From an uncultured Planctomycetales bacterium (GTDB lineage: Bacteria; Planctomycetota; UBA1135): a stretch of 64,000 bases of DNA. The notes beneath the pieces are model-generated. The model worked only from the letters and a program-made list of their open reading frames with translations, had not been told where the DNA came from and searched no databases. The position numbers and the translations under genes are program-made. The stretch is from positions 119,470 to 183,469 of the forward strand of contig CAZWVI010000002.1 of NCBI GenBank assembly GCA_964637165.1, read 5' to 3'. Shown piece after piece: positions 5,921 to 55,003 of this stretch (positions are counted from its first letter, which is position 1; the number at the start of each line of letters is the position of its first letter).

Positions 5921-8900
5921 TTAACTGAGTTGTAACTCGGCTAGGCTAGATAAAACCAGCTCCCAATTGACACAATCTTCTTGTATTCCATAACTTATGG
6001 TCACTGCTCGGACATAGGATTCCATTTGCAAACGATGGTGTTCTTCTTGCTTTGCGCAGTCTTCAAGGCACGACAATTGGTCAGTTTTGAAGTCGTAAAT
6101 CATGGCTTTAATGACTTGTCCACCGGCATCACGCTCGATCACAAGGCGGTCAATAAATCCATTCAAAAGCACTTGTTCACCATCGATCGTGTCAATAATC
6201 CTAAATGAATATTCTTGAAGCACTTCAAAGTCGTTGCCGCCATGTTCAACTGGACGGCTTAACTGTTGCCTAATTGAATTAACTGAAAGTGCGTTAGTGA
6301 ACACCTCAATCGCGCGATCAATTTGCTCCTCGCTGCCACCAAGTTTTTTAAGTAATTGGCGTTGCTTCGCATCGTCGGCAACAAAATCGTTCAGCCACTC
6401 AACTTGTTCAAACAGAGCGTGAACCAAAATACCATGCACTCGGGCAGCTGCGCCACTTCGGTCAAAGAGCTTGGCGATGGTGACTTTTTTATCGGCGATT
6501 GTTGAAGGAGCTTGGCGGGGCAGATGTCGTCGCTGTTCTGTTTCCTTGAGTTTAAGAGCAAGCGGTTTCCTTGGCTTTGCTTCGGGCAAGGCCTCGATGC
6601 CTTTATCCCAAGGTGTCGCCGTTTCCTCCTTCCAAATAATCTCGTCCTGCGAGGTCAGTTCACTTTCCTGAAATGCGCAGCGAAGAAGTCCCCCAATGTT
6701 TTTATTTATCTTGGCAGTATTTGGTTTTTCTGGATCAACCAGGTTGGGGACAATCATTTCCAGCACGCGTTTGGCGCGAGTCATCGCTACATAAAGGGTG
6801 CACATTTGTTCATGTACTAAATTTTCCTGATGCGCCCAATAGACTTTTTCAAGGTCAGGGTGAATCTGTAGCAAGCCTTTAGAGAGAGCCATGGTTACAG
6901 TTGCAAAGCCATCTTGCTCATCTGGTCTGTAAGCAAGCAGACGTGCGTGTTTGCCGCCAGGGATACTACCACTTAATTCTGGAAGGATTACCACATCAAA
7001 TTCTAATCCTTTCGACTTATGAATAGTCATAACTTTGATTGTGGCAGCGGTCGGCACTTCTACCTTCTTTTCGCGAACGAGCTTAATGAAGGCCGAGGTT
7101 CTTAAGCTAGACCGCAAATCAAAGGCGTGACCCAAATCAACCAACTGCTTGAGACGGCTAACATCCCACTGGCTTAAGTTGTCAAAGTCACCCTGCTGGT
7201 TGATGCGGTCGAGAAACGGACCAAAGCCATGCAGTTGCAATTCTTCTCGAACCGAATGAGATATTTTCTGACAAATGTTTTTGCTCGGCACCCCACCATT
7301 CAATTTATATTCAGTTGCCAAGAAACTAGTAGCGACATGGAAACCAGCGGCGGTATCGCCAGGGTGATCAGCTAGGTGCAAAAGAGATAAGACTGCAAGA
7401 ACTGCTTGCGAATCAGTTAGTTGATTGCCACCCTCTGCACTAGCAGGAAGATTTCGGTCTTGTAGTAATTTTACGATGCGAGAAATATCTTTGTTGCCTC
7501 TAGTCAAGATGCCGATTGATGCACCATTGTTTTCAAGGTGATATTTTTCAGCCAACTCAACAGCCCTTTGCAATGCGTAGCGACGTTTGCCAGCGGCGTT
7601 CTTGGCATATTTGACTTGCCGCAATCGAACTTTCCCTGGAAGTTCCTTTTTCGCGGCACTATGAACTGGCCATTCTTTTACCCAGGATTCGGCCGCTTCA
7701 AGGCCCTTTTCGTGATTGTAAAAGGCGTCATTGCCTTCTAACTTAGAGAAAAGTTTATTGACCGCCTCCATCACTACTTGGGATGAACGATAGGACTTGA
7801 ACAAGGGGTCTTGCTTGAGCTTAAACCGCTCAGCAAAGCCTTCCAACAAACGTGGTTCACCATTGCGCCATCTGTAAATGGCCTGTTTGCCATCGCCGAC
7901 ACAGAAAATATCTTGGCCAGTGCTTAACCCTTTGACCACCCTTTCAATTAGTGGCTTTAAGACACGCCATTGAATAACGCTGGTGTCCTGGAATTCATCC
8001 AAGAGCAAATGGTCCACCTTTCTACTTAATCTAAATGAACTGCTATTAGTGTCACCAAGAACATTATTGCCAGACAGGGCCAGCGGGAAATCTTCAAACA
8101 CATACTGGCCACGTTTGTTTTTAATTTCTCGATAATTAGCATCGAATTTTTCAAGCAGTTCCCTCATCGCCTTGTTGCGAGAGGCTAAAGCCGTTGAAAG
8201 ATGAACCTTTGCTTGCTGGTTTAGTCGTTGAAGAAATTCAACCCATTCACCAGGAAGAGTCATTTTCCTGTAAGTTGGAATGCCGTTTCTTACATTGGCG
8301 ATTGCGGTGTATTTAAAAAGTCCAGCCCAATCGCGATGCTTAATAAAATCACCTAAATCCGCTCGCAACTTTTTATCTGCCACGGCTAGTTGCCCGGCCT
8401 GGGTTAGTAAAGTTGAAAGGGACTCTAGTTCATCTACAAGACATGAGCTTTCGGTACTAGCAGGTGATGATTCCGGCTTAATTTGTTCCCAAGCAGTTGG
8501 CGAGCTGTCGCGGAGAGCATCGAGACCGGTCTTAATTAATTCAAGAGTTGTGTCATGGACGGATCGCTTGTTCTCACCTTCGTTAATATTTAATACTAGT
8601 CGGTTTAAATTCGAAATGCTCTCAGTTTTGAAAAGTTCAACAATAGCATCGATTCTTAGTTGTTGGTCAGCGTCATCTTCAATGATTGTCCAGTTGGCAT
8701 TCATGCCCAGCTCAAGTGCAAAAACTTTTGCTGATTCCACAAAGAAAGAATCGATAGTGCGCACATTGAAGGCATCTAACTCCCTAGTCAATTTAGCTAA
8801 GAGGTCATGACAAAGATCAGGAGTTATCTTGTCTCCAAGTCCCGTGGCATCTCTTAGTTCCTTAAGTTTTTCTTCATCAACTGGTGCTTCTGCCACCCAA

Positions 8901-9067
8901 GATAAAACGCGGTCCAAAATTTCTCCAGCCGCCTTGCGGGTGAAGGTAGTGGCCAAAATGTCGCTGGCGGAAATCTCATTAAAGAGCAGTTTTAGGAAAC
9001 GCCCGGCTAATTTGTAGGTTTTTCCAGTTCCCGCTGAAGCCAAATAAACTTGAGTGTCATTAGTCAT
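5921..9067 (-). CDS. addA: AddA-type UvrD helicase with C-terminal PD-(D/E)XK nuclease
   Basis: Walker A ASAGTGKT, TFTRKAAGE, LLDEFQDT, VGDGKQAIYRWR, MTIHKSKGLEF, LYVAMTRAK, then nuclease GFIDRL..DFKTD. ATG overlaps the addB stop (TAATG). Confidence 0.88.
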   Translation of the reverse strand: MTNDTQVYLASAGTGKTYKLAGRFLKLLFNEISASDILATTFTRKAAGEILDRVLSWVAEAPVDEEKLKELRDATGLGDKITPDLCHDLLAKLTRELDAFNVRTIDSFFVESAKVFALELGMNANWTIIEDDADQQLRIDAIVELFKTESISNLNRLVLNINEGENKRSVHDTTLELIKTGLDALRDSSPTAWEQIKPESSPASTESSCLVDELESLSTLLTQAGQLAVADKKLRADLGDFIKHRDWAGLFKYTAIANVRNGIPTYRKMTLPGEWVEFLQRLNQQAKVHLSTALASRNKAMRELLEKFDANYREIKNKRGQYVFEDFPLALSGNNVLGDTNSSSFRLSRKVDHLLLDEFQDTSVIQWRVLKPLIERVVKGLSTGQDIFCVGDGKQAIYRWRNGEPRLLEGFAERFKLKQDPLFKSYRSSQVVMEAVNKLFSKLEGNDAFYNHEKGLEAAESWVKEWPVHSAAKKELPGKVRLRQVKYAKNAAGKRRYALQRAVELAEKYHLENNGASIGILTRGNKDISRIVKLLQDRNLPASAEGGNQLTDSQAVLAVLSLLHLADHPGDTAAGFHVATSFLATEYKLNGGVPSKNICQKISHSVREELQLHGFGPFLDRINQQGDFDNLSQWDVSRLKQLVDLGHAFDLRSSLRTSAFIKLVREKKVEVPTAATIKVMTIHKSKGLEFDVVILPELSGSIPGGKHARLLAYRPDEQDGFATVTMALSKGLLQIHPDLEKVYWAHQENLVHEQMCTLYVAMTRAKRVLEMIVPNLVDPEKPNTAKINKNIGGLLRCAFQESELTSQDEIIWKEETATPWDKGIEALPEAKPRKPLALKLKETEQRRHLPRQAPSTIADKKVTIAKLFDRSGAAARVHGILVHALFEQVEWLNDFVADDAKQRQLLKKLGGSEEQIDRAIEVFTNALSVNSIRQQLSRPVEHGGNDFEVLQEYSFRIIDTIDGEQVLLNGFIDRLVIERDAGGQVIKAMIYDFKTDQLSCLEDCAKQEEHHRLQMESYVRAVTISYGIQEDCVNWELVLSSLAELQLS

Positions 9068-11850
9068 TATTCTTCCTCCTCATCGCTATCGACGTCACCG
9101 CCTAATAATCCGGTCCCAGCGATGGCGGCGAATATCGGTTCCCGAATATTGTCTGTTCCTTCCTTAAATGGCCATTCGGGCTTGAGCTCGTCGCTTGAAC
9201 TGGAGCTATCGTCGTTCCTTGAACGAATGGCGCGCAGGATATCGCCCGCCTGTTTTTCAGCCATTTCCCATGCCTCAGATCCATCATCTACTTTGGGCTC
9301 GTAGGCGCCAGAATCCTTTTCCGATTTGCCTAGATTCCAAATTCCGACAGTTGGTTTTTCACCATAGCCCCCTAGTTTTTTCGCAATCAATCGATAAAGA
9401 GGTAATTGCAACTTTTTCCACTCCTTCTTGTTTTTCAAATAAGGATATTGTTTTTTGTCCCCAGATTTGTAATCCAGAATTCGATATCCGTGATGCTCCT
9501 CATGTTTGTCGATACGGTCAATCTTTGCGCGCAAGAAAACTTTTTCGCCATTAAGCTCGACTTCGATCCCTTCCTTGGGAAGTTCAAGTTCAGCCTCAAC
9601 AATTCGCCAACCATTTTTTATCTCAGCCGCTTGTTGTTTAGCGAACACTTTTAACCGTTGTCGCATTTGCTCCACCTGCAGGTGAACTGCCGGAAGTGCG
9701 TCCTCCCCAAACAATATCTTGCTACGGTAATTAAGGCGTGAACACAGATAGTCGTAAATTTCCTCGGCCTTCTCGTTATCGCGGATTTCAATATCCTTCC
9801 CAAAGTCTTCTAGCACAATGTGAATCAAATTACCGTATAGCAACGGGTTCATTTCTTTGGCATTGTCTTCATCGGTATTTAAACCCAGGACGCGCTCAAG
9901 ATAAAAACTATAGGGTGAATAGAGATAACTTTCAAAATCGGTGACGCGCAGTGATTGGTCGTCGAAGGTGTCGGCGGCGCGCGGCAGAAGGTAGGCAGTT
10001 TGGTTTTTCTTCACCATCTCGGGTAAAGATTCATTGCGGTCCCCCAAGAAGGCCCGCATTCTTTCAGCAATCAATTCCTTGGAGCACCGAAACAATAAGC
10101 GGCTGGGTCGTCGCGGGTCGCCTTGGACAGAATTTCGTCCGCAAATTAATAACAAATCCTGGTGGGCGTTCCTCATTGCGGTTAATGAATAAGCATCTCG
10201 GGCAAAGCGCGAGTTGTTGTCGGGAATGCCCAAAGCCTCCCGCAGAGTGTTAGGTAAAAAAGCATCAGCATGCAAGGATTCAGGCACGAAACCTTCATTG
10301 AATCCGCAAACAATGCCAACCTTGGCGGGGTCCATGCGCATTTCCAGCCAGCCCATCAATTCAATAAAGCCCTTGTCGCTACTTTGCGGAAGCAACTGCG
10401 AGGCGGTTTCCCTTAAAAGTAATCGCAAGGTGGACGCTAACGGTTGATCTACAAATTCGCCGAGCTCTTCGGGCAGTGCTTCGAAACTATGCAGGAGGTT
10501 GGCGAATTTTTTAAGGCACTCAGCCGTTCCTGCATCTTTGGGGTTGTCGGGATTGAATTCACGCTCTCCCCAGACCAATTCAAAGAGCTTTTGGATTGTC
10601 GGTGCCCATTGCGCTGGAGTTTTACAAACATCAGCGGTGCTTGGCCCGAACTTTTGGTCCAGCAATTTCAACAACTTTGGAAGGTCTGAGTATTCGTAGC
10701 GATCGCGAAGCAATTCTCCCTTAATTACATGAGGGAGATGTTGTTTGAAGTAAGTGTCCAACTCCGCCGCCACATTGGGAACTTTGCAAGCACGCATGAA
10801 ATCGGCGTGCCGGCAAAGTGCGGCCAAATCGACCACCTTGCGCCCGTCCAACCAATTAGCCAATGCGTCAAGTAATCGCCAGGGAGGGGTTTTCTTTAAA
10901 AATTCACCCTCCGCCTTATGCGTTTTTATTCTATGCGAGTGAAGCACCCTCTCTAAATAAGGGTGAACTTCATCATCTAACACTGCAATTGAAATGTCCT
11001 TAGTTGAGAGCTCCTTTTTCTGGGCGAGAAATTCAGCAACGGCCTCAGCTTGATCAGTTGGTTGCCCAACCACTGTCCATTCGTTGTCATCGATTTCAAT
11101 TTCTAAATTAGGGTCAGTCCAAGCGTCTACATCAACACACCCAAACTTGTCAAAGCAGTTAGCCCTATTCTCAGGAGCAAAAACGAGGGCAGTAGCTTCG
11201 CTTTCGACCAATGCCAAAGCTTGGCGTTGTAATTTATTGAGGTCAATTACCCCAAGCAAAAAAATTGGATTGGTGTTTGATATTTGCCCACCTTCGATGG
11301 CTTCCTTTCTCGCTTGATGGGGATCGTATTGACCAATTTTAGCCAACTTTTCAAGATATTTGGCTTGGACTTTGGCCAGTACCTTCCATCTGCCCCGCTC
11401 CTGTTCATTGGGTAGCCCATGACACCGCTCAACCTCGGCAAAGGACAACATTTCCCCAGTTAGGTCGGAGTGCAGACGCCGTAGCGGCATGGCCAAACTC
11501 AACCAGGCATTAAGGTCATTAGGATTTGGCGCCTGCTGGATTAACGTTTTGATTTCCTTGGAGTCCAAACATTGTAGGCCGTGAACCCAGCACAGCATGC
11601 GCGTGAAATCGTTGGCGCGAGGTAAATCAAAATCGAATAGTTGGTCGCTTAGTTCACTGACGGTGACAATTCTCGGTTGGCCAATTTTATTGTGGGTAGC
11701 AAACCGTTCTTCAAGACCTCGGGCCGCGCGCCGACCTGGAAGCACAATGGTGATATTGTTGAGGTCGATTTCTGATTGAGAGAGAAACCAATTGTAAGTG
11801 GCATCTAGGTGGGGCTGGTCCCAGCCCAAAAATATCGGGGACGAAATCAC
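9067..11850 (-). CDS. addB: AddB-type inactive helicase/PD-(D/E)XK nuclease partner
   Basis: N-terminal VLPGRRA segment without a Walker A. C-terminal AKIDRID...LDYKSG...LQLPLY nuclease. Coupled directly upstream of addA. Confidence 0.8.
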   Translation of the reverse strand: MISSPIFLGWDQPHLDATYNWFLSQSEIDLNNITIVLPGRRAARGLEERFATHNKIGQPRIVTVSELSDQLFDFDLPRANDFTRMLCWVHGLQCLDSKEIKTLIQQAPNPNDLNAWLSLAMPLRRLHSDLTGEMLSFAEVERCHGLPNEQERGRWKVLAKVQAKYLEKLAKIGQYDPHQARKEAIEGGQISNTNPIFLLGVIDLNKLQRQALALVESEATALVFAPENRANCFDKFGCVDVDAWTDPNLEIEIDDNEWTVVGQPTDQAEAVAEFLAQKKELSTKDISIAVLDDEVHPYLERVLHSHRIKTHKAEGEFLKKTPPWRLLDALANWLDGRKVVDLAALCRHADFMRACKVPNVAAELDTYFKQHLPHVIKGELLRDRYEYSDLPKLLKLLDQKFGPSTADVCKTPAQWAPTIQKLFELVWGEREFNPDNPKDAGTAECLKKFANLLHSFEALPEELGEFVDQPLASTLRLLLRETASQLLPQSSDKGFIELMGWLEMRMDPAKVGIVCGFNEGFVPESLHADAFLPNTLREALGIPDNNSRFARDAYSLTAMRNAHQDLLLICGRNSVQGDPRRPSRLLFRCSKELIAERMRAFLGDRNESLPEMVKKNQTAYLLPRAADTFDDQSLRVTDFESYLYSPYSFYLERVLGLNTDEDNAKEMNPLLYGNLIHIVLEDFGKDIEIRDNEKAEEIYDYLCSRLNYRSKILFGEDALPAVHLQVEQMRQRLKVFAKQQAAEIKNGWRIVEAELELPKEGIEVELNGEKVFLRAKIDRIDKHEEHHGYRILDYKSGDKKQYPYLKNKKEWKKLQLPLYRLIAKKLGGYGEKPTVGIWNLGKSEKDSGAYEPKVDDGSEAWEMAEKQAGDILRAIRSRNDDSSSSSDELKPEWPFKEGTDNIREPIFAAIAGTGLLGGDVDSDEEEE

Positions 11851-11852
11851 CC

Positions 11853-13046
11853 CTAAAACATATCAGGCATGCCTGGGGCAGAGCAAGCAAAAAGTGAACT
11901 TGCTAGCATTAAAGCGTCAGCGCCACCTCCACTTTCTCCACGTAGGTTTAGGTGGCCATTTAGTTGTAGGTGCTCAGCAGTTTGGTGTCCAGAATAAAGA
12001 GCCGCGAGGCCGTTAATGGAAATGTCAAAGGAGGGGCTGCCACCTCGCTCCACTCTGGGAACGCCCGCATCAATCCGCAAACTCCAAGTACCATTATTCT
12101 CTTGAATTACATCGTCCTTAAGCGAGAAACAAGTTTCGCCTGAAATGCTTGGCGACCACCCGCGTTGCAGGAGTGCTTGCTCTACATTTACAATCCGTAA
12201 CATCCATTCTTCCCAAATTTCACGCTTCCAACCACGTTCAGGAAGTAAGTCAATTAGCGGCGACTGAACTCCACTTGGCCAAATTGCTTCGCCGCCCATT
12301 GAGTACAGTGATTTCAAAAAACCAGCCAGGGCGCGCCAGCCTTGGCCGCTACAAGCTACAGCATCTTGAATTTTATAAGTCACGCCAAAATCTAAGTCTT
12401 TGCGTTTGGCAACATAGCTGATGTATGCCTCAACATCACCACCACTATTTTTCAGTACCCAGACTTCTGGTTGTTGCTTCCATGGGTTAAAGATTCGCCG
12501 CCAAATGACCTCTGTGCGGTCTAGGTAGCCGTTCATGCTAGTGGCGTAGTTCTCGTAGCAAGCCTTAACACTGCCCAGGTCCTGGTCTTGAAAGCGGTGC
12601 AAACTTAAGTCGGAGTCAGAGTTGGCGCGTGGGAACAGATTTAGGGGTACCTTTGATTCAACTCGGTAGCCAGCCATTTCGTAGCCAACAGATCGATAGA
12701 GATTGAAGGTGGCAGGGTAAAGGGTCGACAGGGGAGTACCGGCTTGGTGTGCTTCGCCTAAACATTCACGCATCATTTCACGACAAACACCGCGCCCACG
12801 ATATTCTGGCGCAGTGCCCACCCCTGCAATTCCTAACATGGGAATTGACTTTCCATTAAAAAATTGCGCCATATGAATTAGTACCAAGGAAGCAGCAACC
12901 TCATTGTCTTTTTCGAAAACGCGAATATTTTCCACACCAACTCGTTGATGCCACTCGGGGACATCTTCTTCTGAGCAAGTGAATGAAGTGGCCATGAGCG
13001 GCCCGACTGTTACAAGATCACTATCTCTAAATGCGCGGTAACTCAT
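11853..13046 (-). CDS. Eis-like (enhanced intracellular survival) GNAT acetyltransferase with SCP2-like C-terminus
   Basis: GIAGVGTAPEYRGRG acetyl-CoA motif, STLYPAT..LYRSVGYE, MLRIVNVEQAL; about 400 aa tandem-GNAT architecture. Confidence 0.85.
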   Translation of the reverse strand: MSYRAFRDSDLVTVGPLMATSFTCSEEDVPEWHQRVGVENIRVFEKDNEVAASLVLIHMAQFFNGKSIPMLGIAGVGTAPEYRGRGVCREMMRECLGEAHQAGTPLSTLYPATFNLYRSVGYEMAGYRVESKVPLNLFPRANSDSDLSLHRFQDQDLGSVKACYENYATSMNGYLDRTEVIWRRIFNPWKQQPEVWVLKNSGGDVEAYISYVAKRKDLDFGVTYKIQDAVACSGQGWRALAGFLKSLYSMGGEAIWPSGVQSPLIDLLPERGWKREIWEEWMLRIVNVEQALLQRGWSPSISGETCFSLKDDVIQENNGTWSLRIDAGVPRVERGGSPSFDISINGLAALYSGHQTAEHLQLNGHLNLRGESGGGADALMLASSLFACSAPGMPDMF

Positions 13047-13860: not shown

Positions 13861-14154
13861 ATGCAAGAGTTTTCACTCCTTGAGAATCTAAAGCAGTTCT
13901 ACGCGGAATCTCCAGTCCTTGGCACCATAATTGCCTTGGTGGCACTCGCTGGAATGATTGCAGTAGTACGCAAAGCACTGAAAATTGCTGCCGGTCTAAT
14001 TGCTATTGCAATTATTGCTATTGCCGCCTCGTGGGCGTTACGCGGCACTGACGCTACCCAAGAGACGATTGAGGATTCAATTGAGGGAGTCAGTGAGCAC
14101 ATTAAAGACTCGGTGGAAGGGGACCTCCAGCCGCTTGAGCAGTTAAATCGCTAG
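13861..14154 (+). CDS. Small hypothetical membrane protein
   Basis: 97 aa, two hydrophobic helices and an acidic tail; no family recognised. Confidence 0.65.
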   Translation: MQEFSLLENLKQFYAESPVLGTIIALVALAGMIAVVRKALKIAAGLIAIAIIAIAASWALRGTDATQETIEDSIEGVSEHIKDSVEGDLQPLEQLNR

Positions 14155-14224
14155 ATTTGGCCGACCACAGGTCAGCAGAGATTGGATATTTGTGGTAGAT
14201 TTGAGGAGAATCCTACTCCCCTAA

Positions 14225-15581
14225 ATTACCTTAAAAGCCGCCACTCTCGCATTCTTGCTGTTGTTTGTTGCAACAGAATCCGTAGCCGCTCAAGCTTTAG
14301 CAACCCATTTCCTGGAAGCTGAACGCTTGGATGATGGTCGCACTCTATTGACCGATGCCGGCACTAAGTCGCAAGTAATTGGCGCGGTAATGATGGTGGA
14401 TAGTGACGGAAGTTTAGAGCACAGTTGGCAGCGGGCTTTGCAGTATCCGCACTCATCTGAATTTATCAACGACCAAGACATCATGATTACCGATACCAAG
14501 CATGATCGGGTAATAGTCTTGGCACCAAATGGTGAAATGAAATGGACTAGCCATAATTATGAGCCATTTTCAGATGGCAGTACCTTGCTTTACCCAAATG
14601 ATGCAACGCTGCTGCCAAACGGCAACATGCTCATATCTGACATGGACAACAATCGAGTGATTGAACTTGATTGGTAGGGAAATATCCATTGGCAATTTGG
14701 GCAAACTGGAATTGTCGGAAGTGATGGCACTCATTTGAGTGGGCCACATAGCCCCGAACGACTCGCTAACGGCAACACCTTGATTGCCGACGCGCACAAC
14801 GACCGTCTCATCGAAGTCGATTCAGCCGGCACAATTGTGTGGGAGCTCGGTCCGCAACTTTCAGGCGGATATGTGTTGGATAGCCCTCGCGATATTGATT
14901 TACTTCCCAACGGAAATTTTGCGGTGGCTGCATTTCATAATTACGATGTAATCATTGTTAACCGCAACGGTTGGATTAGTTGGCGTCAAAGTTTTAGCGC
15001 ACCTCCTTACGATGTCGATTATCTTGATACTGGCAATTTGCTAATTAGCGTTGGCTCCGTTCAAGAATGGGACACCAATGGCAATTTAATTTGGCGTTAT
15101 CCACCACTAGAAAAAAACCGGGTTGAGCCGTTTGTATTAACCAACCTCGCCTGCCTGGATTGACACATCAGTAAACCGATCCCCGTGGCTTCAGCATCGT
15201 GAGCACATGTTGTTGAAGGATATGTTGTTCGCTCCAAGTTTGTCCTTGGGCGGTGATCACACCGTTGGGGGATACATAACCGCAGTGCTTGATGCCGGAA
15301 TTAATAACGCCAAAAAAACAGCAACCCTTTCTTTAGGCGCGAGTGCCGGAGCAATTCCAGCCAACGGGGGCGGTTGGGGAAATTTAGTTTCCGACTTGGT
15401 TATGAATGCCACCAGGAAAACTGTAAACCTAAATCAAAACGGTCGGGTTAATAGTGCTTGGTCAATTCCTAACACTCCAGCGTTGGCCGGGCTGACCTTG
15501 TTCGCCCAAGCTCAGGTTAAAGTGAGCAATGGGCCGGTGCCATCCAAGTTTAGCCCGGTTCAAATCTTAGTAATTAACTAG
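14225..15581 (+). pseudogene. Disrupted secreted arylsulfotransferase-like/NHL-type beta-propeller protein with a C-terminal beta-sandwich, in three fragments
   Basis: ORFs 14255-14677 and 14735-15163 share one frame, separated by TAG 14675-14677 inside a repeat (VIELDW*GNIHWQFG). About six P-x-D/S...NGN-x-LI-x-D repeats. A second stop (TGA 15161) and a +1 frameshift precede 15207-15581. A signal peptide (ITLKAATLAFLLLF) starts at ATT 14225. Confidence 0.75.
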
Positions 15582-47269: not shown

Positions 47270-47298
47270 CCCATTAATTGGGGTCAGAGTCTGGAGCT
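47267..47298. repeat. REP-like palindromic repeat, copy 1
   Basis: TGACCCATTAATTGGGGTCAGAGTCTGGAGCT; 28/32 identical to 50933-50964; hairpin TGACCCA-N5-TGGGGTCA. Confidence 0.8.
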
Positions 47299-50200
47299 AG
47301 AAATTGATGTCGATGGAGCTCGTTTGGCCCGAGCGGACATCTACTTGGGTTTCTCGCTCAACCCCACCTTTTTGCGCGATGATTTTGTAAACCCCAGGAG
47401 CGTGTGAACCTAGGTCAACATTGCCTGCCGGAATAATCCCGCGTAAAGCAAGCGGGACATTGCCGCGTCCATCGCTGGCAACATGGTCGCCATTAGAGTT
47501 GATTAACACTACTTTGTCGGCATTAACTAGGTCGCCGTTTTCCAGGATTGAAACTCGAACTTTCCCGCCTTGTTCAAGATTAATTTTGCAAACAGTGGTT
47601 TCACCGGCAGAAACTGCGACTTTGGTGAGGGTGGCGGATGCGTAACCATCGGCTTTAACTTCAACATCCCAAAGCCCTGGTTCTAAACCTTCAAGTAGCG
47701 AGGAGGCCCCTTCGTCAGTAACTCGTCCCCAAGATTGCTTGCTTTTGGAATCATTATCTTCTTTGGTTTTTTCACTTGGCCAGGCCGAAGTGGAGAACCA
47801 TGTTTGCTTAGTATCTCCGGAGAATGAAACTTGAATATCAATGATTCCTCCTAGTGGTAGCTTGATATCGCCGAGGTCAAAGTCGTCGCCCTCACGCAAG
47901 GTGAACGTTTTACTGGTCACTTCACTGAATGATCCAACGCCATCAACTTTCCCGCCTTTGACCACAACTTGATAACGGCCAGCGGAAATGCGTTCGAACT
48001 CAAAGAAACCATCATCGTTTGATTGGCACCAGCCCGCGCGACTACCGTTGCGGCCGCCGCCGAACATCATCGACATCATGCCTTGGTTTTGATTCATGCC
48101 GCGTAATGTGAGGCTAAGGTCGGGGACAGGCATTCCAGACCCTTCGGCAATCAAGCGTCCACGGACGTTTGAAACAGGTATTTCCAAAAGCAGGAAGTCT
48201 TCTGCGGCATCCATTACTTCAACTTCAAGCGCTCCATTCCAATCACCGGTATCGATTTGGGCACGGTATTCTCCCGGCTCAAGAGACTTGAAAACGAACT
48301 TGCCATCTTTGTTACTGCGAGCCGTTGACATTCCAAAGTCGAGCATTCCAGAATTCGCTTTCAGCATCAGAATGTTGGCATTGGGGACTGGTATTCCTCT
48401 ATCTAGAACTTCACCTTCTACACGACAACCACCGGCAGATGAATCAATTATGTCAAGTTGGGTGACTTCATTTTCTCGAACGTTGGCAGTGGTTATCTTT
48501 GAACCGGATAGCATTGTCATTATGTCGCCGGTGAAAAGTGACTCATCATCAAGTGCGGCAGTAACCATAATGTAAGATCCAGCTTTCATGTTTGACATGG
48601 TGTAAACACCGTCACCATTAGCAGCAGTTTGTTGAAAATCCTTAGCTTGCATTGAAGCTGCGCCAACCATGCGGCCGGGTAATGGATTATTATTACGGTC
48701 ATAAACTGTGCCAGTTAGAGTTCCACCAAAGGGCACTTCAACTTTGATTCCAGTCCGTTGTTCGTGCTGTTCTAAGGCTTCTACTTTTGATGACGCTGCA
48801 GCATATCCATCAGCTAAAACATTTACATGGTCGGCACCTGATTCAACGCCGTGAACCGTGAAGAATCCATCACTGTCCGTTTCGGCCATTGCCACACTGT
48901 CACCCATGCCTTGCAGCATTGCCATAAACCCCGATTCCTCACCTTTGCCAGCTGTTACAACTGCGCCGGCAATTGGGTTGCTAGTTCCAGCTTCAACAAC
49001 CCGACCAGAAACACTCGCGCCCGGTTCGAGGCTAAGCACAACATCTTTTGTAATTTTGTTTTCAGCAACGATAACTGCCGGCGACTTTGAGCTGGTAAAG
49101 CCTTCGGCTTGAGTAGTTAAATACCACGCGCCGGGAGGAAGGCCGGTAATTTCGAAACTACCTTGGTCGTTGTCGACAAAGTACGAAGCTTGGGCTTTTT
49201 GCCGCCAAGAGTTAGTGCTTCTGATGAGTTGCTCGCCATCGTTAAGCCAGCTTACTTCAGGTTCAGGTTTGGAGTTCGCCTCAACGCCATCTGAAATGTA
49301 TCCGAGGCTTTGAATCTGAGCAGTCATAGCTTGAGAATCTCTGGCCATTTCTCCGCGTATCAAACATATCGAAACAGCTTGGTCGTCAATGGAGTTAATA
49401 ACCTTGCCGCGAATTCCGCCCGGTTTGGAAATTTGCAGAACTGGTTGATGTTCATCCTTTAAATTATTGAGTGAAAAATCAAAATGCGCGTAGCCTTTAG
49501 CTTCAACTCGTAACTTAGCTTGCTTCCATGCAGGGATTTTAAATTCACCCTTGGCATTGGTTGTAGTGAAGGTTGTTTCTGGAATTAATTCGGGAAGTAT
49601 TTCTTGAGCAGCCTCCATTAATATTCCCCCGGGACGATTCATGCGACTGCGCTCGCTACCACGGTCTTCGGTTGAAGTTGGGATAGCCATCAATTTGACC
49701 ATGGCTCTGACAACGGGTTTGCCAACGCTGTCTACAATTCTTCCAGAAACAGTTTGGCTAGTGTTTATTACTAATGGACCGGCGAGAGAACCATTGCCAT
49801 TAACTTGGGCACTGCCTGGCGCACTGCGCCCTTGTTGCCCCTGCGCCATCAGTAAGTAGCTGGCATTTGGCAATTGAGTAAACCGGTATTGACCTTTACT
49901 ATTACTGGTGGCGGTCCACAGCATTGGATCCCGCACAAATGGAATTGTTAAGCGCAAATCAAGCGGTAAAGCAATGACGTCGGCGCCAGTAATTGCTTTA
50001 TCTTCAGTGTCAAGAATTTCACCTTCTAAAGTGCCGAGTTGAAATAGCTTGACTTGAATATTGTTTTCAGTACTGGGAGCCAATGGACCAAACTCACGCA
50101 TTCCTCCTTCGACTCCGCCTCGCCAAGCATTTACCGTAAGAGGTATTCCAGCCGGTACTGCCTCAATCTCAAATGTGCCGCTAGCATCGGAGTAGATTCG

Positions 50201-50872
50201 TTCCATGAAGAAACTACGGTTGCGAAATGCTGACAATAAATATTTCACGCCAGGGCCGATTAAGACTTCGGCGCCAGCAACGGCACTGCCATTTGCGTCT
50301 ACAACTTTGCCGCTAACGCTGGCTGCGGCAACCGTGCGCACGATTACTGGGCTGTCCGAGTTGTTCAAGTTCTCGCTTAAAACTCGCTGGCGGCGTGGTG
50401 TTAAACGTTGCTTGGTTCTTGCAGTTAAATAAATCGTACGGCCTTGAAGGCCACGTAAATTAAAACGACCTTCATGGTCTGCAAATACAGAAGCCATCGG
50501 CTCTAAATTGAAATCTAAGGGCTTTTCAAAAATTTCAGTTATGTCGCTAGTGAAGTCAAATAGTGGAAATGGAACTGAGTAGGCTGCCACCCAACAACCG
50601 GATACCGCCTGATTGTTTTCATCAACTACAATTCCGGACATCTTGTGTTTGCCAAGACCAACCTTTTCTTGTCGGTTGTTAAAGCTTGGCAATTCAACAC
50701 TGTTAATTCTTGAGCCGGCATCGCTATTAGATTCGGCTACATCTTGATTGTTATTTAGCGTAGAAAATTCCAGTTGATCAAGATTATGTTCTTGTTCATC
50801 GGTGGGCGAGAATAGCAGCCACGCCAAGGCGGCTGCTAGAGCGAGAAGTAGGGGAATGAGAACCTTGCGCAT
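47297..50872 (-). CDS. Large membrane-anchored protein of tandem carboxypeptidase-regulatory-like (transthyretin-fold) repeats
   Basis: N-terminal TM; about 10 repeats of G.V.D..G.PV.GA.V...TD..G.F.I..L.PG.Y.L...A.G. Confidence 0.8.
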   Translation of the reverse strand: MRKVLIPLLLALAAALAWLLFSPTDEQEHNLDQLEFSTLNNNQDVAESNSDAGSRINSVELPSFNNRQEKVGLGKHKMSGIVVDENNQAVSGCWVAAYSVPFPLFDFTSDITEIFEKPLDFNLEPMASVFADHEGRFNLRGLQGRTIYLTARTKQRLTPRRQRVLSENLNNSDSPVIVRTVAAASVSGKVVDANGSAVAGAEVLIGPGVKYLLSAFRNRSFFMERIYSDASGTFEIEAVPAGIPLTVNAWRGGVEGGMREFGPLAPSTENNIQVKLFQLGTLEGEILDTEDKAITGADVIALPLDLRLTIPFVRDPMLWTATSNSKGQYRFTQLPNASYLLMAQGQQGRSAPGSAQVNGNGSLAGPLVINTSQTVSGRIVDSVGKPVVRAMVKLMAIPTSTEDRGSERSRMNRPGGILMEAAQEILPELIPETTFTTTNAKGEFKIPAWKQAKLRVEAKGYAHFDFSLNNLKDEHQPVLQISKPGGIRGKVINSIDDQAVSICLIRGEMARDSQAMTAQIQSLGYISDGVEANSKPEPEVSWLNDGEQLIRSTNSWRQKAQASYFVDNDQGSFEITGLPPGAWYLTTQAEGFTSSKSPAVIVAENKITKDVVLSLEPGASVSGRVVEAGTSNPIAGAVVTAGKGEESGFMAMLQGMGDSVAMAETDSDGFFTVHGVESGADHVNVLADGYAAASSKVEALEQHEQRTGIKVEVPFGGTLTGTVYDRNNNPLPGRMVGAASMQAKDFQQTAANGDGVYTMSNMKAGSYIMVTAALDDESLFTGDIMTMLSGSKITTANVRENEVTQLDIIDSSAGGCRVEGEVLDRGIPVPNANILMLKANSGMLDFGMSTARSNKDGKFVFKSLEPGEYRAQIDTGDWNGALEVEVMDAAEDFLLLEIPVSNVRGRLIAEGSGMPVPDLSLTLRGMNQNQGMMSMMFGGGRNGSRAGWCQSNDDGFFEFERISAGRYQVVVKGGKVDGVGSFSEVTSKTFTLREGDDFDLGDIKLPLGGIIDIQVSFSGDTKQTWFSTSAWPSEKTKEDNDSKSKQSWGRVTDEGASSLLEGLEPGLWDVEVKADGYASATLTKVAVSAGETTVCKINLEQGGKVRVSILENGDLVNADKVVLINSNGDHVASDGRGNVPLALRGIIPAGNVDLGSHAPGVYKIIAQKGGVERETQVDVRSGQTSSIDINF

Positions 50873-50932: not shown

Positions 50933-50964
50933 TGACCCAGTATTTGGGGTCAGAGTTTGCAGCT
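50933..50964. repeat. REP-like palindromic repeat, copy 2
   Basis: TGACCCAGTATTTGGGGTCAGAGTTTGCAGCT; same orientation as copy 1; abuts the mrp stop codon. Confidence 0.8.
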
Positions 50965-52016
50965 TACTGTAAAACCTTTAGTTCAAGTGACTTGCGGTTT
51001 TCGACTGCTTTTAGCATATTGGCACAGATATCGTTAAAGGCCTTGCCAATGTCACTATCTGGCTCGGAGACCGCAGCTGGAATACCGGCATCGCCACCGG
51101 CGCGCACACTCGGCTCAAGCGGCACACTGCCTAAGAATGGAACTTTGTAAGCCTCGGCGGTTTTTAGACCGCCGCCGTGGCCGAAAATATCGCCGCACAT
51201 GTTCTCGGCAACTCCAAGCACTGGGCACTTAACTTGCTCACACATTCCAATCGCACGTCGCACATCAGTTAAGGAAACTTCTTGTGGCATGGTTACAACC
51301 ACCGCACCAGTTAGCGGCACTAAGTTTGCTAATGAAATTTGCGCGTCGCCAGTTCCTGGTGGCATATCTACGAGTAAGAAATCAAGCGGCCCCCAATCAA
51401 CATCTTTTAGAAATTGTTCAATAGCCTTGTGCAGCATTGGTCCACGCCACATGACTGGGGTGCCATCTTCAAGTAGATAACCAATAGAAATTGTTTTCAC
51501 GCCGTGAGCTTCCTTGGGAATAATTTGCTGGCCCTCTTTTAATTGCGGCCGCCCTGATAATCCCATCATTACTGGAATGTTGGGACCATAAATATCTGCA
51601 TCAAGTAGTCCAACTTTAAAACCTTGGGCAGCAAGTGAGGTCGCTAAGTTCACCGCGCAAGTTGATTTGCCAACGCCGCCCTTACCTGAAGTAACCGCGA
51701 TGACATGTTCAATTCCTTTGCCTTCAATCGCCGAAACTTGGGCGGCTGGCGGGGCAGCTTCCGGGGCCATAGCGCGCAATTCAACGTTGACATTTTCAAC
51801 GCCATCAATCGCGGCAATCGCGGCATGGGCTTCGCGGCGGATTTCGTCGCCACTTGGCCGCGGTGGGGTGTTGAGTTGCACCACAACTTTGACCGCGCCA
51901 CCACAAGTCGTGATGTCTTGGACAAAGCCCAGCTCGACAATATTCTTGCCGCCGTTGTCGGGGTCTTGCACCTTACTAAGGGCGCTTTGGATGGTGGAAT
52001 CAGTTATTTCAGACAT
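50964..52016 (-). CDS. mrp: Mrp/NBP35 (ApbC) Fe-S cluster carrier ATPase
   Basis: N-terminal DUF59-like domain, SGKGGVGKST, DADIYGP, MWRGPM, DMPPGTGD, ENM. Confidence 0.93.
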   Translation of the reverse strand: MSEITDSTIQSALSKVQDPDNGGKNIVELGFVQDITTCGGAVKVVVQLNTPPRPSGDEIRREAHAAIAAIDGVENVNVELRAMAPEAAPPAAQVSAIEGKGIEHVIAVTSGKGGVGKSTCAVNLATSLAAQGFKVGLLDADIYGPNIPVMMGLSGRPQLKEGQQIIPKEAHGVKTISIGYLLEDGTPVMWRGPMLHKAIEQFLKDVDWGPLDFLLVDMPPGTGDAQISLANLVPLTGAVVVTMPQEVSLTDVRRAIGMCEQVKCPVLGVAENMCGDIFGHGGGLKTAEAYKVPFLGSVPLEPSVRAGGDAGIPAAVSEPDSDIGKAFNDICANMLKAVENRKSLELKVLQ

Positions 52017-52118
52017 GTTGTTAGTCTTTGGTAGCGTAAATCGCCAAGGTGGACGAGGGTGAAGCTAGGATTAAGCCACGATGGCCGAGACTCAACCCTT
52101 GATTGCGGCCTAAACGGC

Positions 52119-53231
52119 GTGCAAGAGCATAAGAATACAAAAAATACCGCGGTTGTGTTGCTTTCGGGCGGACTCGATTCTGCCACAGTTAGCGCCAAGC
52201 TGATTGCCGATGGCTACGAGGTCATCGCTCTGAGTATCGATTATGGCCAACGGCACGTAGTGGAATTGGCCGCCGCCCAAAAACTCGCCCGACTACTCGG
52301 GGTGAAGGAGCATGTGGTTATGCCGATGGACATGAATGTCATCGGGGCCTCGGCTCTTACTGACGACAGAATCGAGGTCCCCAAGGATGATGACGCTAAT
52401 GCCGCAGTTGCCGCCGATATACCGATCACTTATGTGCCAGCGCGCAACACAATTTTCTTGTCGTTGGCCCTTGCTTTGGCGGAATCCCGTGGTGCCCATC
52501 ACATTGGAATCGGGGTCAATGCTCTCGACTATTCTGGTTATCCAGATTGCCGGCCAGAATTCATCGCGGCTTTCGAAAAGCTCGTCAATTTAGCGACTCG
52601 TGAAGGTGTTGAAGGTCGTTCCATAAAATTGCTAACCCCATTGCAGGATTTGAGCAAAGTTGAAATTTTGCAGTTGGCGCGTAAGTTGGCGGTTCCGGTC
52701 GATGAATGCATTTCTTGTTATGACCCACGGCCGAAAGCTTGTGGTGAATGCGATTCATGCCGCTTGCGAATTCAAGCGGAGGCAAAATTATCGCAATGGA
52801 ATTTTCGCGCACCACAGTCGGTCGCAGAAATAGTTGATTTGCGCCACCGCAACTTGCGCCAAAATCAAGCTCGTGAAACCGCTTTCTATCCTGAGGTAGA
52901 TGAACTTGCTAGCACTCGCCATTTGATGGCAGAAGTTGACGGCCAACTGGCTGGGTGTGCAACTTTGCAAGTGGACCCGTCGAGTAACGAATCGTGTCGT
53001 TTGCGAATTCGTGGAATGGCCGTGGACGAGCAGTATCGCGGCATTGGGTTAGGCTCGGCGATGGTGCGTTGGTGCCAAAGTTTGGCTGCCGAAAGTGGCG
53101 ATGGGATTTGGTGTAACGCGCGGATTTTGGCGGTTCCAATGTATGCGCGTTGCGGATTTAAAGTTGCTTCGGATATTTTTGAAATTGAAAACATAGGACC
53201 TCACTACAACATGGAGTGGCAAAATGACTAA
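52119..53231 (+). CDS. queC: 7-cyano-7-deazaguanine synthase QueC fused in frame to a C-terminal GNAT acetyltransferase
   Basis: LLSGGLDS, YVPARNTIFL, DYSGYPDCRPEF, Zn site CISCY...CGECDSCRLR. About 140 further aa follow, with RGMAVDEQYRGIGLG, WCNAR..A..MYARCGF and GPHY. Start placed at GTG 52119. Confidence 0.9.
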   Translation: MQEHKNTKNTAVVLLSGGLDSATVSAKLIADGYEVIALSIDYGQRHVVELAAAQKLARLLGVKEHVVMPMDMNVIGASALTDDRIEVPKDDDANAAVAADIPITYVPARNTIFLSLALALAESRGAHHIGIGVNALDYSGYPDCRPEFIAAFEKLVNLATREGVEGRSIKLLTPLQDLSKVEILQLARKLAVPVDECISCYDPRPKACGECDSCRLRIQAEAKLSQWNFRAPQSVAEIVDLRHRNLRQNQARETAFYPEVDELASTRHLMAEVDGQLAGCATLQVDPSSNESCRLRIRGMAVDEQYRGIGLGSAMVRWCQSLAAESGDGIWCNARILAVPMYARCGFKVASDIFEIENIGPHYNMEWQND

Positions 53232-54042
53232 TGAAAAACCTGTACCGCCGGAGTGGACTTCGGCACTTGAACGACTCATGCAAGTGATTGACACCTTGCG
53301 TTCACCAGACGGCTGCCCATGGGACGGCAAGCAAACAGTAGAAAGTCTTGCCCCGCATTTGGTTGAAGAGTGTCATGAAATGTTGGACGCGGTCGCGCGC
53401 AATGACATGGAAAATCTTTGCGAAGAACTTGGCGATTTGTTGATGGGTGTTTTGATGGTTGCCCGCGTTGCTTCTGAAGACCGTGGCTTCAACCCGGCCG
53501 ATGTTGCGAATGGAATTGTCAAAAAATTAATTCGTCGCCACCCGCATGTCTATGGCGAAACAGAAGTCAGTGGCACTGGTGAAGTGTTGCGGAATTGGGA
53601 GGCGATTAAAAAGGAAGAAAAGCGTGAGAAGGGTGAAGATGAATCAGCCCTTACCGGAGTGCCGGCCAGTCTGCCAGCTTTGTTGCGCGCCTATCGAGTG
53701 GGGCAAAAAGCCTCCGGCGCCGGCTTTGACTGGCCCGATCTATTGGGTCCCGAAGAAAAGGTCGAGGAAGAATGGGAGGAATTTCGCGAGGCGGTTGAGG
53801 CCGGCGACAAACAAGGAGCTGAGCACGAATTGGGCGATTTGCTATTTGCCGTCGTGAACCTCGCGCGCAAGATGAAAATCGAACCTGAATTGGCCCTGCG
53901 TGGAACAATCGAACGCTTTTCATCACGCTTTCGTTATATCGAACGGGAAAGTCCCAAGCCATTAGCCGATTCAACGCTTGAAGAAATGGATTGCCTCTGG
54001 GACCAGGCCAAGGAGCTGGAAGCAAAAGGCGAACTAAGTTGA
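53224..54042 (+). CDS. mazG: Nucleoside triphosphate pyrophosphohydrolase MazG (tandem domain)
   Basis: LRSPDGCPWD, VEECHE, EELGDLL, KLIRRHPHV, EEEWEE, ELGDLLF. Confidence 0.95.
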   Translation: MTNEKPVPPEWTSALERLMQVIDTLRSPDGCPWDGKQTVESLAPHLVEECHEMLDAVARNDMENLCEELGDLLMGVLMVARVASEDRGFNPADVANGIVKKLIRRHPHVYGETEVSGTGEVLRNWEAIKKEEKREKGEDESALTGVPASLPALLRAYRVGQKASGAGFDWPDLLGPEEKVEEEWEEFREAVEAGDKQGAEHELGDLLFAVVNLARKMKIEPELALRGTIERFSSRFRYIERESPKPLADSTLEEMDCLWDQAKELEAKGELS

Positions 54043-54061
54043 GCATTAATCCTTTGCTCGC

Positions 54062-54090
54062 TTGACCATAACGCTCAGCCCCTCTATACT
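54062..54090 (+). promoter_or_regulatory. Sigma70-type promoter for tRNA-Asp
   Basis: TTGACC-17 nt-TATACT, ending 14 nt upstream of the tRNA. Confidence 0.8.
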
Positions 54091-54104
54091 TTTCCGCCCT
54101 GAGC

Positions 54105-54181
54105 GGGGATGTGGCGCAATTGGTTAGCGTACCAGACTGTCGATCTGGAAGTTGCGGGTTCGAGTCCCGTCATCCTCGCCA
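54105..54181 (+). tRNA. tRNA-Asp (GTC)
   Basis: Acceptor GGGGATG/CATCCTC, G73, encoded CCA; anticodon arm CCAGA-CTGTCGA-TCTGG; GTTCGAGTC T-loop. Confidence 0.97.
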
Positions 54182-54191
54182 TTTAAACAGG

Positions 54192-54227
54192 AAGAGAGCC
54201 GTCCATTCGTGGACGGCTCTCTTTTTT
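54192..54227. terminator. Intrinsic terminator after tRNA-Asp, probably bidirectional
   Basis: AAGAGAGCCGTCCA-TTCG-TGGACGGCTCTCTT perfect 14-bp stem, UUCG loop, T tract. Confidence 0.9.
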
Positions 54228-54244: not shown

Positions 54245-55003
54245 CTAGGGCTTTTTCAAGCGGACTTCAATTGGGTCAGGATTGCCGTCCCACTCAATCG
54301 TCTTTTCGACCTTGCCCTTGTAGTTCGAATTACTCGCGGTGACGATGTAAGTGCCCACCGCTCGGGTGAATTTGACTTCCCCGGAATCGTCGGCGCGCTG
54401 GGTTTTGCCCACGTTGCCACTGCCAATTACTCGCATCGGCTTACTGCCGGGTTTAGGTTTCATGGTTACTAGCGCGTTATCGCACAAGTAGCCAAGGTGA
54501 TCTAGGATCAGCATGGTGCAAATTGGAGTAATTTCAATTTTGACGGTGCGCTCATCAGTCGCCCCCGGGGTTGCACTTTTTAAGTCCACCAACTTTGGTT
54601 CAAAACCGTTGCCGGTAATTAGTAAATACTTCGGCTGACTGTCGGCAGTGGCCATGAAATGCACACGCCCATGCTTGGGGCTTTTGTAAGTAGCAATCAC
54701 ATCGCGGCGGCGCGGCTCACGCATGTATTCAGGTGCCGGGCGATTGGCCAGCAACATCGTGCGCGCTCCGGCAATCGCTAAATCTTTTTGATTGCGTAAG
54801 TGCACAACATACAAGCTTGACTGTCCGTCAGGCCCAGCAATTTTAGACATTTTGGTCGGTGCTTTAGTCGCTTGCGGTGCTTCGTCCGGCCGCAGAGTCT
54901 CAGCGATGGTGGCGTTTGGGTCAACCGGCGGTGCCGGGTTTCCACAAGCTGCGAAAATTAAAGCCGCAAGTGTGGCAATGATTATTGGTGAGCGATGTTT
55001 CAT
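54245..55003 (-). CDS. Hypothetical lipoprotein with transthyretin/carboxypeptidase-regulatory-like domains
   Basis: Lipobox LIFAAC, Pro-rich linker, C-terminal ADDSGEVKF..AVGTYIVTAS repeat-like segment. Confidence 0.65.
   Translation of the reverse strand: MKHRSPIIIATLAALIFAACGNPAPPVDPNATIAETLRPDEAPQATKAPTKMSKIAGPDGQSSLYVVHLRNQKDLAIAGARTMLLANRPAPEYMREPRRRDVIATYKSPKHGRVHFMATADSQPKYLLITGNGFEPKLVDLKSATPGATDERTVKIEITPICTMLILDHLGYLCDNALVTMKPKPGSKPMRVIGSGNVGKTQRADDSGEVKFTRAVGTYIVTASNSNYKGKVEKTIEWDGNPDPIEVRLKKP

Follow-up and report, generated by a model that had tools for sequence, protein, structure and literature searches.

QueC, the PP-loop ATPase of 7-deazaguanine metabolism, has been met in fused form before: in phage 9g and its relatives, Gat-QueC joins a glutamine amidotransferase to QueC and makes the archaeosine base for DNA, a precedent showing both that QueC tolerates fusion and that its partners can serve the same pathway (PMC5567051; PMC10516641). 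The same PP-loop fold recurs in the defence proteins QatC, of the Qat system, and Cap9, of type IV CBASS. On the acetyltransferase side, the GAT/YitI subfamily of GNATs, which includes glyphosate N-acetyltransferase (GAT), comprises small-molecule enzymes, and we know of no member with an established physiological substrate. Here, we describe a gene from an uncultured Planctomycetales bacterium (assembly GCA_964637165.1, contig CAZWVI010000002.1) in which a QueC and a GAT/YitI-type GNAT are encoded as a single protein, immediately upstream of mazG and close to a tRNA-Asp(GUC) gene. The gene lies in a stretch of 64,000 nucleotides (positions 119,470 to 183,469 of the contig, forward strand), hereafter the window, and all positions below refer to it. 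The literature we searched yielded no description of either a QueC-GNAT or a QueC-MazG fusion. With moderate confidence, we regard the protein as a lineage-specific, bifunctional product of operon compaction.

The fusion gene was delineated from open reading frame (ORF) calls and from Pfam and NCBIfam matches, and occupies 52119..53231 on the + strand. Its longest ORF version runs from a GTG at 52059 to 53231 (+) and encodes 390 residues, the numbering used throughout; the true start is likely the GTG at 52119, giving 370 residues, because fused homologues in our alignment begin at this position with M-x-x-x-K-D-T-K-K, the 370-aa version falls in the same 90% protein cluster as the 390-aa version, and residues 1-22 of the latter are predicted to be disordered (predicted local distance difference test, pLDDT, <50 in an AF2 model). 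There are zero stop codons between the QueC and GNAT domains, which share one frame; the sequence-only reading of this DNA, which had described an intact QueC reading without a stop into a complete GNAT, is borne out by Pfam, NCBIfam and the single ORF. Such a junction could in principle be an artefact—a frameshift introduced by sequencing or assembly, or a recent stop loss heading toward a pseudogene—and merely a small indel distinguishes the fused from the separate forms described below. We consider this explanation virtually excluded. Across 52000-54131, the Logan contigs of four marine metagenome runs match the window without a mismatch or an indel, and an identical 390-aa protein is present on contigs from JGI, NCBI, ENA and Logan, so base-for-base agreement of four independent assemblies and four data sources tells against an error of assembly or sequencing. 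All catalytic residues of both halves are, moreover, retained in 36 diverged clusters of fused homologues. The possibility raised at the outset that the junction was a one-off stop loss or misassembly is thereby set aside. A metatranscriptome search for co-transcription did not find the locus in any RNA run.

The N-terminal half would, by its motifs, equivalog score and fold, be an orthodox QueC. Its domain (52146..52778, + strand; residues 30-240) matches Pfam PF06508 with E 1e-70 and scores 207.8 bits against the NCBIfam QueC equivalog TIGR00364 (cutoff 150.3); the PP-loop SGGLDS (within LLSGGLDS, residues 34-41) and the zinc cysteines C220, C228, C231 and C234 (C...CxxCxxC) are invariant across the 36 fused homologues; and Foldseek matches the fold to 2pg3 and 3bl5 (E ~1e-13). 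The protein thus shares with canonical QueC a full-length PP-loop ATPase domain, SGGLDS, all four zinc cysteines, an equivalog-level score and a structural match, and differs from it in adding a C-terminal GNAT domain and in its tail—after CxxCxxCRLR, the canonical ending (GF..AG..DP..Y) is replaced by a helix entering the GNAT. A further difference is that no other que gene lies nearby. The que inventory that the sequence-only reading had proposed came back empty for this stretch: domain scans of the window's ORFs returned no folE, queD, queE, queF, tgt or queA, and no gluQ was seen in the window. Nor did Rfam reveal a preQ1 riboswitch, giving only tRNAs whether run at the gathering threshold or with E values up to 1. 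The QueC half would be expected to convert 7-carboxy-7-deazaguanine to preQ0, with ATP and ammonia, for tRNA queuosine.

A role in defence or DNA modification was tried and rejected. Although Foldseek also matches the shared PP-loop fold to 9nto_B, the window protein differs from QatC and Cap9 in being an orthodox QueC—the QatC model (cutoff 280) gives it 14.9 bits—and in having no defence partners: PADLOC returned only its generic QueC model, with no partner defence genes and no match for mazG or the downstream gene. Among the window ORFs scanned there was no dpdA/TGT-family match of the kind that a Dpd-type DNA-modification cluster would call for. Gat-QueC is likewise an imperfect parallel, since its partner is an N-terminal class-II amidotransferase giving nitrogen to the pathway, whereas the partner here is a C-terminal acetyl-CoA transferase in a chromosomal housekeeping context without DpdA.

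The C-terminal half (52794..53228, + strand; residues 246-390) carries YRGIGLGS, an instance of the acetyl-CoA motif A (R/Q-x-x-G-x-G/A), and is predicted to be an intact acetyl-CoA-dependent N-acetyltransferase of the GAT/YitI subfamily. Pfam places a GNAT domain at residues 271-367 (E 1e-12), and the models PF00583, PF13508 and PF13673, all of which match, together span residues ~268-387. The closest known GNAT structure is glyphosate N-acetyltransferase, by sequence (phmmer to 2bsw, E 1.4e-15) and by fold (Foldseek to 2bsw, TM 0.84, rmsd 2.2 Å over 143 columns). In the phmmer alignment, R267, R318, R355, Y362 and H382 correspond to R21, R73, R111, Y118 and H138 of GAT, and none of the five varies among the fused proteins or their free-standing relatives. 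Likeness to the GAT/YitI enzymes (2bsw, 2jdc) therefore extends to the best sequence and structure match, five active-site equivalents and a size of ~145 aa; the differences are that identity to the window GNAT is just ~28-30% and that the domain here is fused to queC or, in relatives, encoded by a gene overlapping it. In GAT (Siehl et al. 2007, J Biol Chem), the substrate's carboxylate and phosphonate reportedly bind in a positively charged pocket made by the three arginines, with His138 acting as catalytic base and Tyr118 as acid, and native GAT enzymes are said to favour small anionic amines. The conserved arginine triad, histidine base and tyrosine acid accordingly predict, for the window protein, a small anionic acceptor of amino-acid-like or aminophosphonate-like character, which the GNAT half would acetylate at the expense of acetyl-CoA; such an arginine pocket would be ill-suited to preQ1 or queuine. 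Foldseek found no solved structure spanning both domains. In the AF2 model, built on a 36-sequence alignment (mean pLDDT 86; predicted template-modelling score, pTM, 0.69), the C-terminal helix of QueC (232-243) enters the first GNAT strand (247-250) almost directly, with no long flexible linker.

Relatives of the GNAT half that stand alone bear on its likely substrate. A search with the GNAT domain recovered free-standing proteins of 143-155 aa at 50-60% identity, some of them labelled Candidatus Poseidoniales archaeon or originating from Tara Oceans. When metagenomes were scanned with a GNAT alignment, 73 of the best 80 loci lacked both queC and mazG within 5 kb; only L093 and L139 had queC upstream and mazG downstream, and in the other five the upstream sequence was too short to judge. 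The usual archaeal context is GCV-H, RNase H, a membrane protein, the GNAT, an aminotransferase, AdoMet decarboxylase, deoxyhypusine synthase and enolase, with no queC near. Marine Poseidoniales-like archaeal loci of this kind, their GNATs 50-61% identical to the planctomycete domain, fall within L089-L172 (e.g., L089 5001-5438 and L091 5001-5453). In a GNAT tree the free-standing archaeal genes nest within the planctomycete queC-linked GNATs, which suggests horizontal export from a bacterium to an archaeon followed by retention of the gene on its own; since these archaeal proteins also keep the active-site residues, the GNAT appears able to function without QueC. The sequence-only reading had proposed that the GNAT acetylates preQ1 or Q. 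Both the GAT-type pocket, with its invariant anion-binding arginine triad, and nearest relatives that are archaeal and far from any queC argue against either compound as the acetyl acceptor.

The fused architecture recurs, apparently within a single marine lineage of Planctomycetota. In a search of 5.8 billion proteins, at least 36 further clusters share it (361-432 aa, 50-67% identity), and those with a named source are metagenome-assembled genomes of Planctomycetota; NCBI labels one 387-aa fused member simply 'QueC'. The search for independent fusions elsewhere came up empty: among 1.84 billion representatives of 50%-identity clusters scanned exhaustively with HMMER, the sole two-domain representative (P0033) belongs to the same family, and no QueC-GNAT fusion came from another lineage. 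The remaining top matches of that scan consist of QueC only or of QueC with other partners. Further architectures among them (P0209, P0280, P0259, P0241, P0385, P0389, P0457, P0388 and P0410) include QueC with radical SAM (probably QueE), QueC with an NAD-dependent epimerase/dehydratase, intein-containing QueC, QueC with a SAM methyltransferase, and PilZ with QueC.

The nearest unfused QueCs belong to the same lineage, occupy the same neighbourhood and are ~68-70% identical over the QueC part. In these sister lineages, queC (228-238 aa) and the GNAT gene (148-155 aa) are separate, the latter lying downstream in another frame with an overlap of 4 nt (TTGA type), 8 nt or 43 nt. A prospect held to weaken the case, that relatives would have separate and unlinked genes, therefore proved half right: the genes are separate in the sister lineages but still linked, overlapping by 4-43 nt. 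The order queC, GNAT, mazG, proposed earlier as a synteny to look for, held in all nine lineage contexts examined (five of five unfused and four of four fused); because a whole block of ~20 kb is collinear across the lineage, such within-lineage synteny says little. Outside it, neither such a GNAT gene nor mazG lay within 6 kb of any of 80 GTDB queC loci, 13 of them from other Planctomycetota, and queC-GNAT or queC-mazG adjacency in other bacteria was rejected on this basis.

Among the fused proteins the junctions fall into at least seven classes that vary in length and sequence. One class (…AEREFAQKAALHTHVDAGRTWHVRHRNLR) corresponds to the arrangement of a sister group with separate genes, where a QueC ending in …AETAFQATLS before its stop codon is followed by a GNAT starting with MNIPELLTHVDVERTWHVRHRNLR; in the fused class, a small indel joins the two. 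To place these changes on a phylogeny, we built a neighbour-joining tree of the QueC domain from 84 sequences, 37 of them fused, and counted changes between the fused and unfused states by Fitch parsimony with 100 bootstraps. The count was 8 (6-10 across bootstraps), as against 22-36 when the labels were shuffled. Judged by this tree, therefore, queC and the GNAT gene have been fused or split repeatedly, with the direction of individual events left undecided. With 36 fused clusters and at least six transitions, the fusion is no one-off.

The mazG gene (53224..54042, + strand) begins with an ATG at 53224 inside CAAAATGACTAA, so that 8 nt are shared with the fusion gene; this overlap and the tRNA-Asp(GUC) downstream were both present as the sequence-only reading had placed them. 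The protein, a two-domain nucleoside triphosphate pyrophosphohydrolase, scores 300 bits against PRK09562 (cutoff 208) and matches PF03819 in two stretches, as tandem MazG domains, and by these matches would be the standard housekeeping equivalog with two domains. What two-domain MazG does as a housekeeping enzyme is itself still debated. In one sublineage (L084 7240-10778), a gene for a 608-aa PAD_porph protein (agmatine/peptidylarginine deiminase-type) and a 568-aa FG-GAP gene lie between the GNAT gene and mazG, setting the two 3.7 kb apart.

Two of the longer QueC matches, P0212 and P0236, proved to be QueC-MazG fusions. This second architecture is found in at least 17 clusters, the fuller ones 444-553 aa long, from high-GC Planctomycetes (72-74% GC) that include a cultured strain with a complete genome, Planctomycetes bacterium Pla163 (CP036290.1). 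The genes at L174 8001-9593 (Pla163), L175 8001-9575 and L173 1266-2795 encode proteins of 509-553 aa, and databases annotate such proteins as QueC or as NTP pyrophosphohydrolase. In this lineage Mrp, QueC and MazG are 44-54% identical to those of the window, the QueC-MazG gene is again divergent beside mrp, and a tRNA-Asp(GTC) gene lies 4.3 kb downstream, past an unknown gene and an ABC transporter. The Pla163 arrangement thus resembles the window in its ancestral locus (divergent mrp, queC, mazG and, later, tRNA-Asp) and in having QueC fused to its downstream neighbour; it differs in being without the GNAT, in a variable linker of 20-35 aa, and in that the canonical QueC tail (GF..AG..DP..Y) is kept. 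A hidden GNAT after the Pla163 gene was considered and dismissed, as the downstream ORFs of 160-178 aa have no Pfam match. Because the locus of mrp, QueC-MazG and tRNA-Asp is shared with so distant a lineage, the queC-mazG pair beside mrp would be an old planctomycete arrangement; on this comparison, one branch would have fused queC to mazG, and the other would have gained a GNAT gene between them, repeatedly fusing it to QueC.

These observations keep in play an alternative that we consider unlikely, though a serious contender: that QueC and MazG, together with the GNAT in this lineage, work as one functional module of 7-deazaguanine metabolism. MazG could then hydrolyse deazapurine (d)NTPs arising from salvage of preQ0 or preQ1, or tune the GTP/dGTP pool that supplies the pathway, and acetylation by the GNAT could serve to inactivate or mark an amine or by-product of that pathway. 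What keeps this alternative live is that the linkage persists and that a second, independent type of fusion occurs at the same locus: queC and mazG are linked, often overlapping, in all nine lineage contexts, QueC-GNAT fusion is recurrent, and QueC and MazG form one protein in the distant Pla163-type lineage. Phage preQ0/deazaguanine clusters with an embedded MazG-type gene offer a parallel (PMC6893657; PMC10516641), and acylation of the preQ1 amine has a precedent in phage DNA, where it is N-formylated (PMC10516641). The phage MazG proteins are, however, of a different, single-domain type, and the window's mazG looks like the housekeeping equivalog. The divergent mrp and the downstream tRNA-Asp are common to both planctomycete lineages, so their shared queC-mazG linkage represents one inherited adjacency and not convergence; hence the link between QueC and MazG drawn by the sequence-only reading gains some genuine support from the Pla163-type fusions but is weakened by that single origin and by the ordinary character of mazG. 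Two unrelated genes part mazG from the GNAT gene in the sublineage described above, no queD, queE, queF, tgt, queA or preQ1 riboswitch accompanies the locus within 64 kb, and the GNAT, whose active site suits anionic amines, persists in archaea without queC. In its most specific form, the proposal would be a three-enzyme system of QueC, GAT-type GNAT and MazG managing free 7-deazaguanines in Planctomycetes, with the GNAT N-acetylating an amine of the pathway or its tRNA product (e.g., preQ1, CPH4 or the glutamyl group of glutamyl-Q) and MazG destroying deazapurine nucleotides made by salvage; this we think improbable.

The tRNA-Asp(GUC) gene (54105..54181, + strand; tRNA prediction and Rfam) is probably its own transcription unit, because a promoter-like site lies upstream of it and a terminator downstream. 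The former is a sigma-70-like sequence, TTGACC-17 nt-TATACT (54062..54090, +), that matches the consensus at 10 of 12 positions (a consensus match only) and ends 15 nt before the tRNA; the latter is an intrinsic hairpin (54189..54226, +) with a 17 bp stem, a UUCG loop and a T-run (-28.1 kcal/mol, z -7.3). Within the lineage the tRNA gene always follows mazG, even where two genes part mazG from the GNAT gene, and in Pla163 it is displaced by 4.3 kb. Its membership in the operon, and with it the earlier suggestion that it belongs to a system with the fusion gene, was rejected on these grounds. A second variant of mazG/tRNA-Asp appears over 53719-54131 in Logan contigs from three runs, merging with the window sequence at the tRNA and nowhere else; the tRNA-Asp sequence is common to co-occurring related strains, and assemblies break there.

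The tRNA also figures in another explanation, in which the GNAT acts on a queuosine-linked macromolecule—either a lysine of QueC itself, as self-regulation by the level of acetyl-CoA, or an amine carried by a tRNA, for instance the free alpha-amine that glutamyl-queuosine presents on tRNA-Asp. The short and, in the model, apparently rigid junction would hold the GNAT near QueC, native GAT enzymes acetylate L-Asp and L-Glu weakly, and a tRNA-Asp is nearby. Yet that adjacency is inherited, a promoter-like site of its own precedes the tRNA, and no gluQ accompanies the locus in the window; the GAT/YitI subfamily, besides, acts on small molecules, and archaeal homologues that stand alone, without a QueC partner, keep the same active site. 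We judge acetylation of a macromolecule to be very unlikely.

We therefore return to operon compaction as the reading that we favour, again with moderate confidence: the protein would be bifunctional and specific to this lineage, its QueC half serving preQ0 and queuosine synthesis and its GNAT half acting on a small, probably anionic, amine that is not a deazaguanine. The queC and GNAT genes, adjacent, overlapping and presumably coupled in translation, would sit within the old planctomycete queC-mazG operon, where small frame-changing indels at their overlapping stop and start codons would give rise to the fusion. Fusion and fission would both be easy because the genes overlap, and the locus would have flipped several times between the fused and the overlapping-but-separate states. 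The two halves would catalyse chemically separate reactions, the fusion serving mainly to fix 1:1 co-expression. Several points weigh against this interpretation. Repeated fusion, together with overlap or fusion that stayed unbroken while QueC diverged to ~60% identity, is a classic signature of functional linkage, and the QueC-MazG fusions at the same locus elsewhere suggest that the operon partners cooperate. The pTM of 0.69 and the short, well-predicted junction could mean that the geometry between the domains is fixed.

The surroundings are those of an ordinary chromosome. Besides the fusion gene, the window carries addAB-like genes, accD, rpe, pgk, gap, tilS, ribBA, an ECF sigma factor, 2-oxoacid:ferredoxin oxidoreductase, the nuo operon, a GGT gene, mrp, thiI, dsbD, dapF and gyrA. 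The divergent neighbour of queC, mrp/apbC (50964..52016, - strand), encodes an Fe-S carrier ATPase and is kept beside queC in both planctomycete lineages. It forms part of the collinear ~20 kb block, which reads GGT, a CarboxypepD_reg-repeat protein, mrp (-), queC/GNAT, mazG and tRNA-Asp, and continues with an unknown gene (-), thiI (-), tRNA-Val, dsbD, dapF and gyrA. The repeat protein (47297-50872, -), secreted and 1191 aa long with many CarboxypepD_reg-like beta-sandwich repeats, is kept upstream of mrp throughout the lineage. The gene kept between tRNA-Asp and thiI (54245-55003, -) encodes a predicted lipoprotein of 252 aa with no family match and a faint C-terminal CarboxypepD_reg, and overlaps thiI by 4 nt. 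Farther away, a second acetyltransferase, Eis-like and 397 aa long (11853-13046, -), adjoins rpe and the addAB-like genes (5921-11850), and four consecutive small ORFs (13861-15581, +; 97-142 aa) have no NCBIfam match.

The name 'QueC' that databases give to the fused protein hides a second, predicted activity. The QueC-GNAT proteins of the marine lineage and the QueC-MazG proteins of the Pla163 lineage are leads that might tie these enzymes to 7-deazaguanine metabolism; were the three-enzyme proposal true, the two fusions would stand as two Rosetta-stone records of cooperation. If the link is only genomic, the locus would instead offer a clean natural case of overlapping stop and start codons enabling genes to fuse and split repeatedly, and a caution that a Rosetta-stone fusion does not by itself prove a shared function.

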